IMG/VR virus record: IMGVR_UViG_3300033049_000020 | Span: 64,001-128,000 of that record | Strand: one strand, 5' to 3' | Source of the DNA: a virus | DNA length: 64,000 nt | Shown: positions 5,448 to 47,503 of the stretch, in pieces | Layout: every line of letters starts with the position of its first letter | How positions within the stretch are numbered: position 1 is the stretch's first letter | Notes under the pieces: model-generated | Told to the model about the DNA's origin: nothing | Databases searched by the model: none | Seen by the model: the letters and a program-made list of their open reading frames with translations, nothing else | Position numbers and translations under genes: made by a program

Positions 5448-6398
5448 ATGAACAAGAACGTAATAAGAAATAAGGTAAGAGAAGCACTAGGAAGTGTTAA
5501 CTCTATTGGGGTGGCTATCACTAAGCCAAACCAAGAGTTAATTGTTATGAGGGGTGTTTCTGGGGCTGGTAAGTCCACTAGAGCTAGAGAAGTAGTCGGT
5601 GAAGGAGCAATACACTCAACTGATGACCTTTGGGAAGCTACTGGTGACTACTTAGGTGCCTTCAAGAAGATGAACGAGACTGGTGACTGGTCGGCACACG
5701 GTAAGATGCATAACTTAAATTTCACTAACGCGAAAGCGTCAATGGAAACGGGTGTATCTCCAGTTGTTATCGATAATACCAATCTTAAGGCTTCGGATGC
5801 GAAAGCATATGTTAAGGCTGCATTGGAATTGGGTTATTCGGATGTTAATATCAAGGTTGAAGACGTTGGAACGAACGGTTTGACTGTTGAGGTATTGGCT
5901 GAAAGAAATACTCACGGTGTACCATTGGATAAAATTAAGAAGATGGTTAACGTTCATAAGAGCGTTGGAACATTGACAGTTAAGAAGATTATGGAAGCCT
6001 CTGGCGGTAAGAACCGACCAAAGGTTCTATATTCTGCTGTGGTTTTAGATGAAAACTCTAAGACCAAATTGTTGACTGCGTTGAAGCATTTAATCCCAGA
6101 AGGATGGGCACTATTCGCGCATCACATGACAATTGTATTTGCTAAAGGACTACCTGATGACCTTAAAGGGGATTTGGGTGAGACTGTGACGCTTAGAGCG
6201 ACTGAAATCGGTATATCCGATATGGCGATAGCCGTTAAGGTTGATGGATATTTCACAACTAACGATATTCCACACATTACGCTTGCGGCTAACACTGAGG
6301 CAGGTGGGAAGCCATTCATGTCTAATAAAATTACAAATTGGAAACCATTGGGGTCATACGTGAGCCTTACTGGTGTTGTAACTGAGATAAGGTCATGA
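5448..6398 (+). CDS. AAA_33 polynucleotide-kinase-like domain fused to 2H cyclic phosphodiesterase
   Basis: GVSGAGKST P-loop, VIDNTN, RNTHGVP; HHMT and HITL 2H motifs. Confidence 0.8.
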   Translation: MNKNVIRNKVREALGSVNSIGVAITKPNQELIVMRGVSGAGKSTRAREVVGEGAIHSTDDLWEATGDYLGAFKKMNETGDWSAHGKMHNLNFTNAKASMETGVSPVVIDNTNLKASDAKAYVKAALELGYSDVNIKVEDVGTNGLTVEVLAERNTHGVPLDKIKKMVNVHKSVGTLTVKKIMEASGGKNRPKVLYSAVVLDENSKTKLLTALKHLIPEGWALFAHHMTIVFAKGLPDDLKGDLGETVTLRATEIGISDMAIAVKVDGYFTTNDIPHITLAANTEAGGKPFMSNKITNWKPLGSYVSLTGVVTEIRS

Positions 6399-19603: not shown

Positions 19604-19662
19604 TGTGGGGTAGCTCAGTTGGCTAGAGCCTTGTTTCGGTGGTTCGAATCCGCCCCCCACAA
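19604..19662 (+). ncRNA. Anticodon-armless tRNA-like RNA
   Basis: TGTGGGG/CCCCACA acceptor, canonical D and T arms, 8-nt linker in place of anticodon arm. Confidence 0.65.
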
Positions 19663-19887
19663 CTAAATAATTATTTATATGTTTGAAAAATTAAAATGTA
19701 AGGTGTTTGGTCATGAGTGGAGATATAACTTCTCCACCATGCCAAACAAAACTATTTGTGCTAATTGCAAAATAAAGGCTAAGTTTGATTTGAGAGGATT
19801 GGAGTGGAATCCAATCGACACCTTTGAAGGTGAAAAAAGAACCGATGAAGAATTAATTGCCGAGTGGGGTAGTAAATTGTATTAATA

Positions 19888-21162
19888 ATGAAAGAAGATA
19901 AGTTTTACTGTTTGACTATGTTTCCTTATCCTAGTGGTAGTGGGTTGCATGTCGGTCACGCCTATAACTACGCTGTTATGGATAGCTATTGCCGTTGGAA
20001 GAATTTCTGTGGCGTAGAGACATTCCAACCGTTTGGTTATGATGCATTTGGCTTGCCAGCAGAGAATTACGCTATTAAACACAATCGAGACCCAAGAGAG
20101 ATTACTTATGAAAATATCGATAATTTTCGTGGTCAAATGGATAGAATGACTACCAATTACGAAGAGATGGTTATCACTTCTGACCCATCTTACTACAAGT
20201 GGTCACAATGGTTGTTCACCAAGATGGTGGAACACGATATGGCCTACAAGAAGAATGCGCCTGTGAATTTTTGTCCTTCATGTAATACTGCTTTGGCTAA
20301 CGCTCAAGTGGTTGAAGATAAGTGTGAACGATGCGATACTAAGGTAGAACAACGAGATATGAACCAATGGTTTTTCAGGTTGAGCAAGTATGCAGATAGG
20401 TTGGTCTCCAACTTGGACATCATTGACTTCCCAGAGAAGACAAAGAAGCAGCAACGTCACTGGTTGAAAGAACCCCAAGATTGGTGTGTATCTAGGCAAA
20501 GAGCTTGGGGTACACCAATCCCTATTAAGGGAGAAACCGACACATTGGATACATTCGTTGACAGCTCATTTTACTTTATAAGGTATTGTGACCCAACTAA
20601 CGAGAATGAAATAGCCGCTAAGGATAAGATACGTCAAGTAGACTTGTATGTAGGTGGTAATGAACACGCTTGTATGCACTTGGTGTATGCTAGGTTTGTA
20701 AATATGTTCTTGTTTGATATTGGTGTGACCCCATTTGAAGAGCCATTCAAGAAATTGGTTCACCAAGGTATGATAATCAAGGATGGTGAGAAGATGAGCA
20801 AATCTAAAGGTAATATTGTTAATCCAGACGATTATGACCCAGACGAGATGCGAGAATATTTGATGTTTTTGGGTCCTTATACCCAAGGTGGTGATTGGAG
20901 CGATAGTGCTATGGTGGGCATTAGGAGGTTCAACGGTAGGTTTAATAGATGGTTGGGTAATGCCCAGATTGACGGTGAATCAATAGATGTTGGACAATTG
21001 ATGAGTGATATTGATAAAAATGTGGAGATATTTAATTTTCATTTGGTTATTAGTTCATTTATGAAATTCTATAATTCAAACAAGGGTAAAGTTATCAACA
21101 TTAACACTAAGAATGAATTGACTAAAATGTTTACCTGTTTTGCACCCAATTTTACGTCTTAG
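19888..21162 (+). CDS. leuS: Minimal leucyl-tRNA synthetase (no CP1 editing domain)
   Basis: MFPYPSG.GLHVGH, DAFGLPAENYA, DWCVSRQRAWG, GGNEHA.MHL.YARF, KMSKSKGN. Confidence 0.95.
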   Translation: MKEDKFYCLTMFPYPSGSGLHVGHAYNYAVMDSYCRWKNFCGVETFQPFGYDAFGLPAENYAIKHNRDPREITYENIDNFRGQMDRMTTNYEEMVITSDPSYYKWSQWLFTKMVEHDMAYKKNAPVNFCPSCNTALANAQVVEDKCERCDTKVEQRDMNQWFFRLSKYADRLVSNLDIIDFPEKTKKQQRHWLKEPQDWCVSRQRAWGTPIPIKGETDTLDTFVDSSFYFIRYCDPTNENEIAAKDKIRQVDLYVGGNEHACMHLVYARFVNMFLFDIGVTPFEEPFKKLVHQGMIIKDGEKMSKSKGNIVNPDDYDPDEMREYLMFLGPYTQGGDWSDSAMVGIRRFNGRFNRWLGNAQIDGESIDVGQLMSDIDKNVEIFNFHLVISSFMKFYNSNKGKVININTKNELTKMFTCFAPNFTS

Positions 21163-22039
21163 GAAATATTTCGTCTAACCAACCATTTTTATATGCGGAT
21201 TTATAAGCGGCTTGATTATCACCTCTAAAAGATGTCCTATTTTTATAACCCGTTGAAGCCTCAAAACATTTATCCTTAGTCCAATAGTATTTTTCGTGCC
21301 CATCCTTGGACATGTGCTTACAAATATCATCCAACCAACCCCTTCTTAATGCTATATTATAAACTGAAACGTGTTTTTTTCTAAATTCACTTTTAGTCTT
21401 ACAATTAATGCTTATTTCCCGACACCTGTCCTTATCCCAAAACCCTCTGGGTTTAATTTTATTTGGAATAATATCGTATACGTCTACCAACCACCCACCG
21501 TTTTTTGCCGAATTGTAAGCTCCATGGTATTTTTTTATGAAATAGTCTCTACTTTCACATAATTTAGCCACTTCCAGACATTTTTCTCTTGTCCACTTGG
21601 TAGTATTACCCCCTAAACCACCACGTTTTCGATTAATTATATTAACCTTAGACTCTTGGTATTCTTTAATTATTTTAGACTCTAATTTAGCCGCTTCTTC
21701 TTTATCTATATAGTCGGTTAATTGTTTGACAATGAATTTATGATTATTCTTAGCTAAATATCGGTATATTGAACTTCTTCGGTCTACTCTGTGTTTATAT
21801 TTCCTAACGTCTAAATTGTAAGTTAAACCAATATAGATAGCGCCACCCTCAAATTCATAAGCGTATACGCACCTATTATATCTGTTACCGTTATTAGACA
21901 TATGTTCACATAGTTCTTCGTGCCACCCCATTTTCAACGACTTATTATAAGCACCACTGAACCTAATAGTAAATTCGGTTTTAGTAGAACATAATAAGGC
22001 TAATTCCTTACATTTATTTTTGGTTAGTTTATATTTCAT
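21152..22039 (-). mobile_element. GIY-YIG homing endonuclease with repeated WT/WD..KC helical modules
   Basis: VYAYEF..IYIGLT..R; four repeats ending AY.SA..GWL. Confidence 0.8.
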
Positions 22040-22090
22040 TATTACGGTTTATTATAAATATGGGCTAGAACCAAGAAAACCCATTAATTT

Positions 22091-22396
22091 ATGTACTTGA
22101 TGTTCATTGGTCACTATTTCGAAGGTGGTGATTGGGACGATAGGGCTATTAAAGGTATTCGTAAGTTCAAAGGACGAATGGATAGATGGTTGAACGAAGC
22201 TGAGAAGCATGGTGAAGCTATTGACGTTAGAACGTTTATCGATACAGTTGATGGGTACGTTGAGGCATTCAAATTCAATAAGGTTATTAGTAGTTTTATG
22301 GAGTTCTACAATAAGAACAAGAATACCACAATAGATATACCTACGGCCAATATCATAAGGGAGATGATGAAATGTATATCTCCTAATTTCAAATAA
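22091..22396 (+). pseudogene. Orphaned duplicate of LeuRS C-terminus
   Basis: YLMFIGHYFEGGDWDD..GIRKF aligns with YLMFLGPYTQGGDWSD..GIRRF of leuS. Confidence 0.85.
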
Positions 22397-25586: not shown

Positions 25587-26923
25587 GATGGACTTAGAAA
25601 AACAATGGAACGACTTACGTAACGATGGTAAATTATTATCATATATTGAGGATAAGTTTGACCACTATAAAGAACTTGGCTATCAAGTAAGTGCCTTCAT
25701 AAGCTCTTCTTATATTAGTATTGGAGATGAGAGTATCACAGGCAACAAATCCATGTACCACGAATTAAAGAGTATTCATGATATGGATGCGTACTTAAAA
25801 GATAAAGAGGAAAGTCAACCATGAACAAACTACACGCAAGAAAAATAAGTGAAACCATACCTGATGTTGCAATATTCAACATGCTGGAACGTGCTAAGAC
25901 TGAGGTAAAGGATTGGTCGGTTCCATGTAAGGTGAATGGTCAGATAAGTAGGGGACATTTCTGGAACATGTTCGCATGTCAACTTAAAGCTCCAGATTTT
26001 GAAATCGTGAGTAGTATGGTTAAGTATAGTCTTATATATGAGTTCGGTGACCTACTTCCAAAGGAGTACCAACCACCCAAAAAGAAAAAAGGTAAGGAGT
26101 TACCATTAAACTATATTCATTCAGAACCAAAATTTAACTAATGGAAACAGATGGAGATTACGATACTGGATGGGATGAATCAGAAGATACTGAACTAGAA
26201 GCATGGGATGTAGAAACGGATTCTGAAGACCCAGAATTTGAAACTGGTAAGGAACCAAATAAGGATATTGATTATTTATACATTCTTGGTGAGGCTTGGC
26301 CAGTATATCCGCAAGGTATCACCACTATTTTCGAAGATAAATATGAAAGACCTCATATTGTATCTAGAGAGCAATTTGATGCTATTCACACCAAATACTC
26401 TTGTATAGATATTGATGATGAGGTAACGGCTATCGATATAGTCAAAATTGGAAACACATCTTACGAATTTACCATTAAAGAACTTAATATCAGATGTCGC
26501 TCTAACTATCCTTGGGCATTCTTTGAGAACACTCCAGAGAATAGACCGAAAATCAATGAGTACTATAGACAGAAAAAGAATAGAGAAGAGTTGGCTGAAA
26601 TAGTTGAAGTATTAAGAAACGATATTGCACAACTATGAACGAAGAAGTTACCCACTTCAATTATTGTATAGCTAGACCATGGAAAAATAATCCAAATAGT
26701 CTATCCGCATACGCTTTAGGTACTCAATTATTTTATGGTACTATGGAGGAGGCTGAAGACACAAGAGCGAATATAAGTAAACGAGCTGGAAAAGAATATG
26801 AAATCTATAAGCTTGATAATCAACCACTTATGAGAAAACCTTAAAATATTTTACAAAAGACTTGTATTATCCAAATACTTTTCGTATCTTTGTACTATAT
26901 TTAATAGAAAGACATAAACAGTT

Positions 26924-26992
26924 ATGAGAAACTTTAACGACATATTCGAATTCAACTTTGCCGCATTTGCGGAGGAGGATGATTGCATCTAG
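26924..26992 (+). CDS. Leader peptide 2 (Phe/Glu/Asp/Ala-rich): MRNFNDIFEFNFAAFAEEDDCI
   Basis: Short ORF between promoter and terminator, ahead of Phe/Glu/Ala/Asp tRNAs. Confidence 0.8.
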   Translation: MRNFNDIFEFNFAAFAEEDDCI

Positions 26993-27034
26993 ATGCCAAA
27001 GGATATGTTGTAAACGAAACTCAATACGATATAC

Positions 27035-27068
27035 AAAACCTTTGGCTAACCAGTCAAAGGTTTTTTTT
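27035..27068 (+). terminator. Attenuator terminator 2
   Basis: AAAACCTTTGGCT/AGTCAAAGGTTTT plus T run; CCTTTGGC can pair alternatively with GCCAAAGG at 26995. Confidence 0.85.
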
Positions 27069-27185
27069 ATGCCTTAAAATTAAAATATGCGACCTAAGCT
27101 AACTTGGTAGAAGCACTGGCTTGAAACCCTTCTTTCTAATAGAAGTAAAACAATTAGAGTGAGTTCTTTGACATCTTGGTTAAAT

Positions 27186-27259
27186 GGGGTAGTGGTAGAG
27201 TTGGTCAATTGCGTTCGGTTGAAGCCCGAAAGATGTAGGTTCGATTCCTACCTGCCTCA
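27186..27259 (+). tRNA. tRNA-Phe(GAA)
   Basis: GGGGTAG/CTGCCTC, loop TTGAAGC. Confidence 0.8.
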
Positions 27260-27323
27260 CAAAAGTTTGAACTATTTTTACACTTTTCAGTCTTTGTTGA
27301 TATTTATATTAAACGATGATATT

Positions 27324-27740
27324 ATGGAAAAGAAAATTTGTACACGATGTGAAGATAGTAAAGAGTTAGACGACTTCAGTTGGAAGAGTAAAGTAAAAGG
27401 GACTAAACAGTCTAAGTGTAAAGTATGTATGCGTGAGTTGGATAAGATAAAATACGCTAATGATACTGAAAGGAGAAGAAGAATAAGGGAAACCGCAAAA
27501 CTGGCTTATATTAGGAATCGTGATTTTGTGCGGAGAGTAAAAAGGTTGGGTAGCTGCTCTGAATGTGTAGAAGATAGGTGGTATTGTTTAGACTTCCATC
27601 ATTGTGGAGATAAAGAGTTTGAACTTAGTGATATGGTACATTCTGGGTATTCCATTATTAAGATTAAAAAGGAAATTAGAAAATGTAAGCTTCTATGTGC
27701 TAATTGTCATAGAGAAGAACATTACCAGAATGGTTATTGA
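27324..27740 (+). mobile_element. HNH homing endonuclease
   Basis: CSEC..LDFHH...KC.LLCANCHREEH. Confidence 0.85.
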
Positions 27741-27776
27741 CGCGGTTCGAAACTGGTAGGTCGCACCAAAACATAC

Positions 27777-27849
27777 GTGACAGTAGCTCAGTTGGTAGAG
27801 CATCGCCCTGAAGAGGCGAGTGTCGGGGGTTCGAGACCCTCTTGTCACA
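27777..27849 (+). tRNA. tRNA-Phe(GAA)
   Basis: GTGACAG/TTGTCAC, loop CTGAAGA. Confidence 0.9.
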
Positions 27850-28013
27850 CAGCTAATATTTTAGCCAGAAATAGCTAAAATAGAGGTAAATAGTTAATAT
27901 ATTAGCTATTGTTCTTTGACATCTTGGTTAAATGGTGCTGTATGCAAGCGGTTCAACGCAGCAATTTGACATTTTCTAAATGTTTAGTATATTTATATTA
28001 AAATAGATATATT

Positions 28014-28640
28014 ATGGTAAGAAAATGGAGAGAAAAGGAAATTGAGTTTTTAAAGCTTAATTATGGTGCTAATGGTTGTAAATACGTTTGTGAAAAATTA
28101 AATAGAGGTAGAGGTAGTGTACAGAAAAAGGCTAAAGTCTTCAACCTGAAAGTAGATAGGAAAAAAATTTATTATTCAGTGGAAGTTGTTAGTAGAATAG
28201 TCAGTGAAAGTATGTCGATGAAGGATGTGGTGTTGGCATTAGGTAAAAGTGTTAGTGGTAAACAATATAAGGTAATAAAAAAGTTTATAGATGATAATAG
28301 TATTGACGATACACATTTTAATCCTTACCACTTAAATAAAACTAATTTAAAAATTGGTAGAGTCACATATCCAATTGACCATTGGCTTAAGAACGGTTCT
28401 AATATTAGTAGTTCTAACTTAAAGGTTAAACTATATAAAGAAGGTCTGAAGAAGAGGGATTGCGAAATGTGTGGGCAAGGTGAAGAATGGTTAGGTAAAA
28501 AAATGAGTTTAATACTTGACCATATTAATGGGGTGAATGATGATAATAGGTTGGATAACTTAAGGATTGTTTGCCCTAATTGTAACGCTACCTTGGAAAC
28601 CCATTGTAGAGGTAGTAAGGGATTAAAACAACGTGCGTAA
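28014..28640 (+). mobile_element. HNH homing endonuclease
   Basis: CEMCG..LDHING..DNRLDNLRIVCPNC. Confidence 0.9.
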
Positions 28641-28714
28641 TGCAATTGGGTGCGCAACTGGGCTTTCACCCCAGCTACATTGTTAGAGAGTGGGTTCGAT
28701 TCCCACACGCATGA
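28632..28714 (+). tRNA. tRNA-Glu(TTC), long variable arm
   Basis: CGTGCGT/ACGCATG, loop CTTTCAC; overlaps HNH stop. Confidence 0.75.
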
Positions 28715-28908
28715 CTATACAACCTTGTGTCTATATGACTTCGAGGGTTCGAATCCCTTCGGCACTACATTATTGGTGTTCCAAATTGACCTAAAATTGA
28801 GTGTTTTGGAACACCAATAACCAGCCAAAACTACCTGTTTTAGGGTACATTTGGCTGGTTATAGAACGCGGAATGTACTTAAATGTGGTAGATTCCGAGA
28901 AATATCAC

Positions 28909-28981
28909 CGCCCGTTGGTCTATCGGTTAGGACGTCTGGTTTTCAACCAGAAGGTGATGGGTTCAATTCCCATACGGGTGA
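28909..28981 (+). tRNA. tRNA-Glu(TTC)
   Basis: CGCCCGT/ACGGGTG, loop TTTTCAA. Confidence 0.9.
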
Positions 28982-29011
28982 CCTTGACAATCTGGAAAGA
29001 CAGATAATTAT

Positions 29012-29088
29012 GGGGGATGGGACTGCTTTGGAGTGGTCACCTCACTTGCAATGAGGAAATCAGATGGGTTCGAATCCCATATCCTCCA
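29012..29088 (+). tRNA. tRNA-Ala(TGC)
   Basis: G3:U70 pair, loop CTTGCAA. Confidence 0.85.
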
Positions 29089-29153
29089 CTCAATGTGGGA
29101 CTTTGATTTACTTTTTCTCCACTTTGCGTATATTTATAATAAAGACTAAATAA

Positions 29154-29933
29154 ATGGCTAAGTGTAAGAATATTGAGTGTAAAAATAATACAGAAGGTAA
29201 ACGAGTTTATTGTTCGTTACAGTGTAGGAACTATTATGTTAACAAATATATTAGGGACTACAATAAAAATAGCAAGGGGCTTGCCAAAGACGCTAAGAAA
29301 GTTTATGAGGACAACCCTAAATATTGCTTAAACCCTAATTGCGGAGAGAAGATAACATATAAGAAAAGAAGGAACCAATATTGTAATAGCTCATGTCAGG
29401 CGTCTGTTACGGGTGTAGGTAGAATTGTTAGCGAAAGTACTAGGGAAAAGCATAGATTAAGTAGGTTAAAACAAATTGGTGATTACAAAAAGGTTGATTG
29501 TAAATGGTGTGGTTCAGAACTATTAGTTATGAATAGAAGACTATATTGTGATTCAGAATGTAGAAGAAAATATAATCGTAAGAATATGGATGAGTTCTTA
29601 ATCTACAAAGCTGACACAAAATTCGGTTTTAATTTGGGTGATTATCCTAAAGAATTTAATTTTGGGCTGATAGAGGAACACGGTTGGTACTCACCAACCA
29701 ATTCAAGAAAGCCTAATATTGGTGGTATAAGTAGAGACCACATGTTATCAGTTAGAGAAGGGTTTAATAGTGGGATAGACCCAAAATTATTGAGTCATCC
29801 AGCCAATTGTAAATTGATGATTCATGGTGATAATATTAGTAAGAATAAGAAATCTAGTATAACAGAAGAAGAATTAAAGGAAAGGATTAAAGAATGGAAT
29901 AAGAAATATGGGGCTATGGTGACAACTGGCTAA
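29154..29933 (+). mobile_element. Zn-finger/HNH-like homing endonuclease
   Basis: Multiple CxxC/YCS..C; SRDHMLS..HPANC..NISK; ends inside tRNA-Ala. Confidence 0.65.
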
Positions 29934-29983
29934 CACGTTGCTTTTGCAAGGCAGAGATGGGGTATCGTACACCCCTAGCTCCA
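29910..29983 (+). tRNA. tRNA-Ala(TGC), atypical T loop
   Basis: GGGGCTA/TAGCTCC, loop TTTGCAA. Confidence 0.75.
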
Positions 29984-30297
29984 CTTATTAACTTAAAAAT
30001 GAAGTAAAATGAGACTTACAGAGAAAAGAGAAATGCTTATGAAATTGGGTGAGAACCTAATGAGTAAAGGTGGTAAGCTAACACTTAACTTCACCAACGG
30101 TAGTATGAGGTATACGGAGCTTATAGCTTCTGAACAGTATCACTATCAAAGTGACAAACGATATGTCGAAATATCGGCTATGGTTCATTTCAGTGAACCA
30201 AACGTCTACAGGGTAATACCTATAGGCACTAATACAATTAGTTTTGTACTGGAAACACTTCTGAGTAACTCCAAGTAACCGCTTGGCATCAGTAATT

Positions 30298-33308: not shown

Positions 33309-33424
33309 TGGCGTATGGTGTAGTGGTAGCACACTTATAACGGAACCTGACCAAGGTTCTATTCAGCAACAAAAATTTCCATTTCGAGGAAGTAGCGGAG
33401 GTTCGATTCCTTCTACGTCAACCA
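33309..33424 (+). ncRNA. tRNA scaffold carrying a permuted CAGCAA module
   Basis: TGGCGTA/TACGTCA-A-CCA, D and T arms intact; insert GAACCTG-ACC-AAGGTTC-TATTCAGCAA before hairpin TTCC-ATTTCGA-GGAA. Confidence 0.6.
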
Positions 33425-47283: not shown

Positions 47284-47354
47284 AATTATAAAAATTGTAC
47301 ATGACCTAATTATAAAAATCGTACATGACCTAATTATAGATATTGTACGTCACT
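47284..47354 (+). repeat. 24-bp tandem repeat x3
   Basis: AATTATAAAAAT(T/C)GTACATGACCT twice plus a degenerate third copy. Confidence 0.85.
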
Positions 47355-47374
47355 TTAGAGATGAATAAAAATAT

Positions 47375-47460
47375 CGGTTAGATGGTAAATTGGCTAAATC
47401 AGCAGACTGTAAATCTGTCGTCTTTCGACTATGTAGGTTCGATTCCTACCTGACCGACCA
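47375..47460 (+). tRNA. tRNA-Tyr(GTA), C1:G72, encoded CCA
   Basis: CGGTTAG/CTGACCG-A-CCA, loop CTGTAAA. Confidence 0.85.
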
Positions 47461-47503
47461 AGCTAAGTTCACACTATAATCGCAAAGAAGAGGAAGTGTA
47501 ATT

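Follow-up and report, generated by a model that had tools for sequence, protein, structure and literature searches.

A tRNA-Phe Gene in Two Parts around a Nested tRNA-Phe and an HNH Endonuclease Gene in a Huge Marine Phage

Introduction

Free-standing homing endonucleases are already known from phage tRNA clusters. The main example is SegB of phage T4, and the F-Tfl nucleases of phage T5 are of the same kind. The anticodon loops of bacterial tRNA genes can hold group I introns with homing endonuclease genes. In phage Aeh1 the nrdA gene is split by mobE, and split or permuted tRNA genes occur in Nanoarchaeum equitans and Cyanidioschyzon merolae. The present work deals with a tRNA-Phe gene, designated Phe-A, that lies in two parts around a complete tRNA-Phe (Phe-B) and a gene for an HNH endonuclease (HNH-1). 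The locus is placed in a stretch of 64,000 nucleotides (nt) of viral DNA, bases 64001-128000 of the 152,464-bp IMG/VR virus record IMGVR_UViG_3300033049_000020, which is judged 43% complete. This whole stretch is the window, and positions are those of the window unless indicated otherwise. The source is a huge marine phage.

Several described systems are close to this arrangement. SegB is a free-standing GIY-YIG nuclease of the T4 tRNA cluster that recognizes the conserved T-arm motif of tRNA genes and cuts at their 3' ends (PMC2330249). Mobile open reading frames (ORF) that carry a foreign C-terminus are described in fungal mitochondria, in atp6 of Allomyces macrogynus and in atp6, atp9, cox2 and nad3 of Glomus (PMC3630166). 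Fractured genes with split inteins are made by the insertion of endonucleases (PMC2677866), and discontiguous tRNA genes have been reviewed (PMC3400036). No paper was found on a tRNA gene split around a nuclease gene and a nested isoacceptor tRNA; the papers on the moraphage (PMC12619734) and on CPR genomes (PMC8172020) have no bearing on it.

Results

The locus and its immediate surroundings contain the following features, all on the plus strand.

27038-27068, plus strand: terminator-like hairpin and T run, read directly, at the end of the leader region that precedes the tRNA array; the related contig L090 has homologues of both the leader ORF and the hairpin
27089-27127, plus strand: 5' part of Phe-A, with the acceptor 5' strand (GCGACCT), A8A9, the D arm (GCT, 11-nt loop, AGC; stem of 3 bp), one A, the anticodon-stem 5' strand (CTGGC) and the anticodon loop TTGAAAC (GAA)
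27128-27136, plus strand: junction filler between the tRNA remnant and the inserted block; the left boundary is uncertain by ~9 nt
27137-27187, plus strand: upstream element (U), the last 25 nt of which are an exact repeat
27186-27260, plus strand: Phe-B, a complete tRNA-Phe(GAA) nested in the split gene (ARAGORN; Infernal 57.8 bits)
27300-27313, plus strand: AT-rich promoter-like motif ATATTTATATTAAA, just 5' of the HNH start, with a putative function
27324-27740, plus strand: HNH-1, an intact gene for an endonuclease VII-like protein of 138 aa (phrog_2255), whose stop codon abuts the T arm
27741-27768, plus strand: 3' part of Phe-A, with the T arm (CGCGG TTCGAAA CTGGT), the acceptor 3' strand AGGTCGC, the discriminator A and CCA
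27777-27850, plus strand: Phe-C, a third and canonical tRNA-Phe(GAA) (ARAGORN; Infernal 64.4 bits)

An earlier reading of the letters alone (the sequence-only reading) had noted perfectly complementary acceptor strands ~610 nt apart. The strands indeed form 7/7 Watson-Crick pairs, and the distance between the parts is 613 nt. Among the T-arm-like sites of the whole 152-kb record, the orphan T arm at 27741 has exactly one partner that combines perfect pairing with a D arm, and this pair is the only one of its kind in the record. The same reading had spoken of two tRNA halves. The 5' part runs from the acceptor strand to the anticodon loop; the 3' part comprises only the T arm and the acceptor strand, and ~10 nt of the tRNA are in neither part, namely the anticodon-stem 3' strand and the variable loop (roughly positions 39-48). 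The T stem pairs at 3/5 positions, and its loop is TTCGAAA. A chimeric stem, with a 5' strand from a donor and a 3' strand from the recipient, was considered for the two mismatches; the record holds no CGCGG/CCGCG donor and the idea stays speculation. Both parts keep their native spacing, the 5' part to the upstream terminator and the 3' part to the next tRNA, Phe-C, 8 nt further on.

Between the parts lie the U element, Phe-B, the promoter-like motif and HNH-1, so that the tRNA-Phe(GAA) and the HNH gene previously recognized in the insert are both present. At the left edge of this block, homology to a second copy of U begins at ~27137 and homology to L090 at ~27130. At the right edge, the C-terminus of HNH-1 (..HYQNGY*) is native to the nuclease: DNA homology to a paralogue reaches 27727, and homology to L090 includes the stop codon, which places the start of the tRNA remnant at ~27741. 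The ACCAG at 27724 was tried as the missing anticodon-stem strand and ruled out, since it belongs to the conserved C-terminus of the HNH protein.

Intact genes of the Phe-A type were searched with a degenerate pattern of the 5' part, ACCTAAGCTAA...GGT..AAGCACTGG, and occur in 19 related contigs (LR745206.1, three from IMG/VR and 15 from JGI metagenomes). The unusual A8A9 and the D arm of Phe-A are found in all of them, together with a CTGGA CTGAAAA TCCAG stem-loop, and several encode CCA. The parts of Phe-A are identical to these intact tRNA-Phe(GAA) genes at 28/35 (5') and 19/26 (3') positions. The anticodon register, which had seemed ambiguous between GAA and TGA, is settled as GAA by this homology. 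In the flanks examined (contigs L015, L017 and L019), a second Phe gene lies 90-160 nt 3' of Phe-A, and the gene order in L017 is Phe-A, His, Phe-B, Trp, Lys. The Phe-B orthologues are identical at 42/52 (L017) and 40/53 (L015) positions of the aligned core. No HNH gene stands at the Phe-A/Phe-B place in these three contigs. This makes both Phe-A and Phe-B long-standing members of such arrays, and the HNH gene is a presence/absence polymorphism at the locus among relatives that are distant (~60% protein identity in a leucyl-tRNA synthetase (LeuRS)-like gene, one relative compared).

Searches closer to the sequence itself were negative. An exact 26-nt pattern of the 5' half gave 0 matches in IMG/VR, and a pattern with the 5' acceptor and start of the D arm, N40-65 and the 3' acceptor gave 0 matches in the JGI metagenomes. 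The 165-aa ORF upstream has no relatives in IMG/VR.

The absence of a recognisable group I intron core, noted before, holds under direct search: models of group I and group II introns gave no match at E<=10 in 26000-30000, nor at the gathering score in the whole window (Infernal). ARAGORN, when introns up to 1500 nt were allowed, reported no tRNA across the split. In 2356 trial joins of the two parts only low-threshold calls, below the normal cutoff and of mixed identity, were obtained, which say little by themselves, and the joined candidates gave no cloverleaf fold. The two parts fall short of a whole tRNA because the anticodon-stem 3' strand and the variable loop are absent. Given this gap of ~10 nt and the lack of an intron core, Phe-A is read as a pseudogene, neither spliced nor assembled from two pieces.

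The opposite reading is a functional discontinuous tRNA, whose parts would be expressed and then either spliced through an intron mechanism of a new kind or brought together in trans, by joining or annealing, in the manner of Nanoarchaeum. It is extremely improbable, even with perfectly complementary acceptor strands, a 5' part that retains all its cloverleaf features, an encoded CCA end and a polynucleotide-kinase-like ORF in the window (5448-6398; phrog_505, E 5e-12). The missing segment, the two T-stem mismatches and the failure of every intron model stand against it. Cofolding of the flanks (-37.2 kcal/mol) lies within one standard deviation of shuffled sequences (-35.5 +/- 2.8), thus no better than shuffles, and the single 8-bp helix between the flanks is not conserved in L090, a contig that is devoid of the 5' part altogether. 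A search of the 152-kb fragment, only 43% complete, for RtcB and two families of RNA ligases was negative; the control for one of these families failed, and the result favours neither reading.

The block is conserved in a second phage, represented by L090 (a Logan contig). This contig has, in order, the leader ORF, the terminator, a diverged U, a Phe-B orthologue (224-297), a ATATTTATATT motif and the HNH gene. Directly past the HNH stop comes an orphan tRNA 3' fragment that begins at the T loop, and after it the genes for Glu and Asp, a GIY-YIG gene and Ala. The segment of 49 nt with the 5' part of Phe-A is lacking, as a clean alignment gap. A stretch of L090, GACTGAAAAT, was considered as a remnant of the Phe-A anticodon and dropped, since it aligns equally well with the spacer after the terminator and is ambiguous. 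The insertion is probably old rather than recent, because the block is common to both phages and their HNH proteins are only 62% identical. The simplest history would be a single old insertion into Phe-A, after which the L090 lineage lost the 5' part, by then useless.

HNH-1 is free-standing: it lies outside any intron or intein, with tRNA genes or fragments on both sides. The protein matches phrog_2255 (E 1.8e-28) and phrog_3106 (E 1.4e-17), and contains a DFHH...CANCH motif and four CxxC pairs. No Pfam HNH model reached E 0.1, and a sequence search of the PDB gave no useful match. The record holds five paralogues, which makes a family of six genes. In three of the six an orphan tRNA 3' fragment lies within 20 nt after the gene, and one runs into a low-scoring tRNA. 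Protein searches gave homologues in L090 (62% identical), L091 (54%) and L093 (44%), those of L091 and L093 directly abutting an intact tRNA-Phe and an intact tRNA-Arg, respectively. Homologues from cultured phages are 36-40% identical, and the two checked, from Escherichia phage SUSP1 and Erwinia phage pEp_SNUABM_01, both lie inside tRNA arrays. From these settings, the HNH-1 family is a dweller of tRNA arrays whose nearest members are tied to tRNA-Phe genes.

The ORFs of HNH-2 (at 28632-28640) and HNH-3 (at 29910-29933) run into the tRNA genes that follow and have their stop codons within the 5' ends of these, tRNA-Glu and tRNA-Ala with anticodon TGC, respectively. The same position of the stop codon is seen in the homologues of L091, L093 and Erwinia phage pEp_SNUABM_01.

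The site upstream of Phe-B, formerly described as boxA-like, is better described as an exact repeat of 25 nt, 27163-27187 being identical to 27911-27935. A third, diverged copy of U heads another tRNA array of the same genome (G000:C1:56997-57013). The element reads GTTCTTTGACATCTTGGT(TAAATGG) and lies directly 5' of tRNAs. A 17-mer of U matched 50 viral contigs. Most of these matches are due to chance and no more than five seem related (L046, L048, L060, L074 and L079); in these the U-like element is also 5' of tRNAs. U is possibly a promoter or a processing signal. The motif ATATTTATATTAAA is exact at 27300 and 27989. Copies with one mismatch lie at 29130 and, on the minus strand, at 22048, the latter ahead of a GIY-YIG gene. 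With up to 2 mismatches, 12 sites were observed against 4.7 expected, further sites being 46226 and 54504. It stands just 5' of several homing-endonuclease genes, including the next two nuclease genes after HNH-1.

The same topology recurs in this genome. Two further tRNA loci are concerned.

27934-28769, plus strand: second split tRNA, with a similar layout; a weaker case than Phe-A
G000:C1:57701-58423 (L087:802-1524), outside the window: third split tRNA, with a 26-nt acceptor-plus-D-arm fragment, tRNA-Arg(TCT), an HNH paralogue and a 3' fragment

The 5' part of the second split tRNA starts at 27934 (GGTGCTG TA TGC..GCA), behind the second copy of the 25-nt repeat; at 28743-28767 lie an orphan T arm and its acceptor strand. 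The strands form seven acceptor pairs, two of them G-U. The parts flank HNH-2 (28014-28640; Pfam HNH, E 1.4e-5) and a tRNA-Glu with a long variable region (28632-28715), and here the nuclease gene precedes the intact tRNA, unlike the order at the Phe-A locus. In the third case, the complete tRNA-Arg(TCT) comes immediately after the fragment, which is identical to its first 26 nt at 23/26 positions, and the 3' fragment lies right past the stop codon of the HNH paralogue. The split pair has the G1-U72 and U4-G69 of the nested tRNA-Arg, with compensatory changes at 2:71 and 6:67.

A protein gene shows an equivalent layout. The window contains a leucyl-tRNA-synthetase-like gene (leuS), whose best public match, at 60% identity, is in the 635-kb uncultured phage LR745206.1. 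At this locus (19888-22396), the C-terminal 99 residues recur, 53% identical, beyond an inverted GIY-YIG gene (21152-22039). The layout is that of an intact gene with a replacement C-terminus, a nuclease gene and the displaced original C-terminus. The order native 5' part, replacement, endonuclease gene and displaced 3' part is thus found at Phe-A, at G000:C1:57701-58423 and at leuS.

The window has a G+C content of 36.5% and 43 tRNA genes according to ARAGORN, and Infernal adds five further tRNA matches. Promoter-like repeats of the TTG...TAnnTTTG kind are recurrent, and their type suggests a Bacteroidota-type host. Three seawater DNA metagenome runs of one study contain the stretch or part of it. 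In run X1, which is possibly the source sample, a contig of 14.6 kb covers 26883-28100 without differences; the left junction is covered only by this run, which may be the source. A contig from a second sample bridges 27692-27891 (the end of HNH, the 3' part and Phe-C) without differences. No contig skipping the insert was found in the three seawater runs, and the only joint listed there, from 26904 to 27233 (side 22), is a repeat artefact. Positions 27783-27832 of Phe-C have a very high summed contig depth in these runs, from other organisms at 86-88% identity. Phe-C resembles an ordinary cellular tRNA-Phe, and Phe-A and Phe-B do not.

Other unusual tRNA-like sequences accompany these loci. 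Outside the window, G000:C1:62293-62402 (L089) has two orphan T arms past another HNH paralogue, one of which is followed by its own acceptor complement (CCTAGGG, 15 nt, CCCTAGG), a hairpin or permuted-looking arrangement. A tRNA-like sequence without an anticodon arm occurs at 19604-19665 (TGTGGGG TA GCTC..GAGC, 8 nt, GGTGG TTCGAAT CCGCC CCCCACA). Many tRNAs are over-long (33309-33421, also 16756, 30398, 46033 and 46791), among them a 113-nt Infernal match with an insert of ~40 nt and Cys, Asp, Pro, Gln and Glu genes of 84-96 nt. The standard tRNA finders disagree on several of them. A class of tRNAs combines A8A9 with long variable regions. Outside the window, at G000:C1:44751-45125 and 47335-47483, lie a phage transfer-messenger RNA (tmRNA; ARAGORN, tag ending ..AALSA) and two tRNAs with a CUA anticodon. 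The latter are amber suppressors and possibly a sign of TAG recoding.

Discussion

The locus is probably a dead copy of a tRNA-Phe(GAA) of the Phe-A type, made by an insertion associated with an HNH gene that belongs to a free-standing homing endonuclease family of tRNA arrays. This explanation draws on the anatomy of the locus, the homology with intact genes, the presence of a conserved block in another phage and the recurrence in the same genome. A nuclease activity, its target, a repair route and an order of events can be inferred from them. HNH-1 or its ancestor would make a double-strand break in or near the Phe-A gene, probably near the variable-loop/T-arm region, by analogy with T4 SegB. 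The break would be repaired imprecisely, as indicated by the non-homologous nature of both junctions, and the nuclease gene and the neighbouring Phe-B would be left between two remnants. Subsequently, the decoding of Phe would pass to Phe-C and to Phe-B, the first intact gene past the leader and the terminator. The locus lies directly behind this leader and terminator region, and the insertion therefore changes the first tRNA-Phe of a regulated array.

Several points weigh against this explanation. An uninterrupted allele with Phe-A's own acceptor sequence is not found in IMG/VR, in the JGI metagenomes or in the seawater runs. The intact allele that had been expected in relatives is thus represented by the orthologues of the 19 contigs, and not by an allele of the same sequence, so that the state before the insertion is deduced from orthologues that are only ~75-80% identical. 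L090 does not have the 5' part and therefore requires an extra deletion in its lineage. An old split also makes the perfect 7/7 acceptor match somewhat unexpected; under neutral decay its chance is about 10%, by a rough estimate. HNH-1 is a predicted nuclease, and ordinary homing by homologous repair offers no explanation for the locus, because both junctions are non-homologous.

The sequence-only reading had proposed that a homing element destroyed its tRNA target and brought a cleavage-resistant substitute. The proposal is partly supported. The gene is indeed broken by a block with an intact isoacceptor tRNA and an HNH gene. The resistant substitute is plausible but unproven, as Phe-B is not demonstrably imported. 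In its full form, the spare tRNA-Phe and HNH would be a mobile unit that cuts genes of the Phe-A type and is copied into the break, harmlessly, with a cargo that has no cut site. Such a cassette is rather unlikely. It would account for a nested and a broken tRNA with the same anticodon; on the other hand, isoacceptors cluster in these arrays anyway, and a same-anticodon neighbour is not improbable. The conservation of U, Phe-B, HNH and the 3' fragment as a block in L090 fits such a unit, but orthologues of Phe-B adjoin an intact Phe-A in the HNH-free relatives. Phe-B is therefore an old resident paralogue, and need be neither cargo nor foreign. The three closest relatives of HNH-1 all adjoin tRNA-Phe genes, whereas more distant homologues lie between intact tRNAs with no broken gene. 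Two further points in favour of a cassette lie outside the locus: the 5' fragment of the third split tRNA is a near match of the nested tRNA-Arg(TCT), with the unusual G1-U72 and U4-G69 in common, and at leuS the replacement and the displaced C-terminus, 53% identical, stand on both sides of the inverted GIY-YIG gene, in the layout of the fungal mitochondrial hybrids of a mobile ORF and a foreign C-terminus (PMC3630166). No pair of close alleles with an empty and a filled site was found.

A local rearrangement would leave HNH-1 as a bystander. Phe-A and Phe-B would have been duplicated in tandem, and later deletions would have left parts from different copies. The alternation His, Phe-A, His, Phe-B in relatives is a sign of tandem duplication, and numerous tRNA-like sequences of the record are odd or fragmentary, some being orphan T arms without a partner. 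This history is very unlikely: it needs at least three events versus one, both parts keep their native spacing to the terminator and to the next tRNA, the nuclease stop and the fragment meet at an identical point in L090, and three nuclease genes as well as leuS show the topology.

The insertion of an HNH gene into Phe-A, as preferred here, has a wider meaning through its recurrence. One 152-kb record holds three tRNA cases and one aminoacyl-tRNA synthetase case with the same topology, which suggests selfish nuclease genes, each with a spare copy of the broken gene next to it. That the block is conserved and the layout recurs speaks for a lasting association of nuclease and spare gene. A more general and doubtful proposal is that break-and-replace modules are the form in which homing endonuclease genes move in this lineage of huge marine phages, each module carrying a working substitute or keeping one beside it. 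The substitute would be a whole isoacceptor tRNA for tRNA targets and a new 3' end for leuS. If so, repeated rounds of breaking and replacing would yield the same-anticodon tRNA paralogues and the tRNA debris of huge-phage arrays. If nuclease and spare gene are mobile as a pair, a functional gene could be colonised by a selfish nuclease with no harm to the phage, and this would be one source of the redundant and oddly shaped sets of tRNA genes in huge phages. An automatic count of tRNA genes in such genomes would then be a mixture of live genes, spares and wreckage.

Comparison with Known Systems

The split and permuted tRNA genes of Nanoarchaeum and Cyanidioschyzon also encode the 5' and 3' parts of a tRNA apart, with complementary acceptor strands. 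Their halves, however, give a full cloverleaf, are flanked by a bulge-helix-bulge and depend on an archaeal or eukaryotic splicing endonuclease, none of which is met at the Phe-A locus. The group I introns of tRNA genes are similar in that the interruption is from the anticodon loop and the insert has an endonuclease ORF; here there is no ribozyme core, the exons are incomplete and the insert has an extra tRNA gene. Fractured genes and the nrdA of Aeh1 share with this locus a free-standing endonuclease gene between two parts of one gene. Their products reassemble as a functional protein, whereas here there is no evident route of reassembly and paralogues cover the function.

The fungal mitochondrial mobile ORFs differ in that they concern protein genes, with an in-frame fusion at a homologous crossover. 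At Phe-A, a complete tRNA gene with an upstream element of its own stands as the separate replacement, and neither junction is homologous. They have, on the other hand, the same succession of native 5' part, replacement, endonuclease gene and displaced 3' part, which the leuS locus matches closely.

SegB is a GIY-YIG nuclease instead of an HNH nuclease, and its cleavage is known from published work (PMC2330249), whereas HNH-1 is known from sequence alone. SegB adjoins intact tRNA genes and its homing replaces whole neighbours; at Phe-A, two remnants remain with a nested tRNA. Both are nuclease genes with their own expression signals among phage tRNA genes, and both are absent from the homologous arrays of relatives. 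SegB recognizes the T-arm motif and cuts at the 3' ends of tRNA genes, and the stop codon of HNH-1 abuts the T arm of Phe-A.

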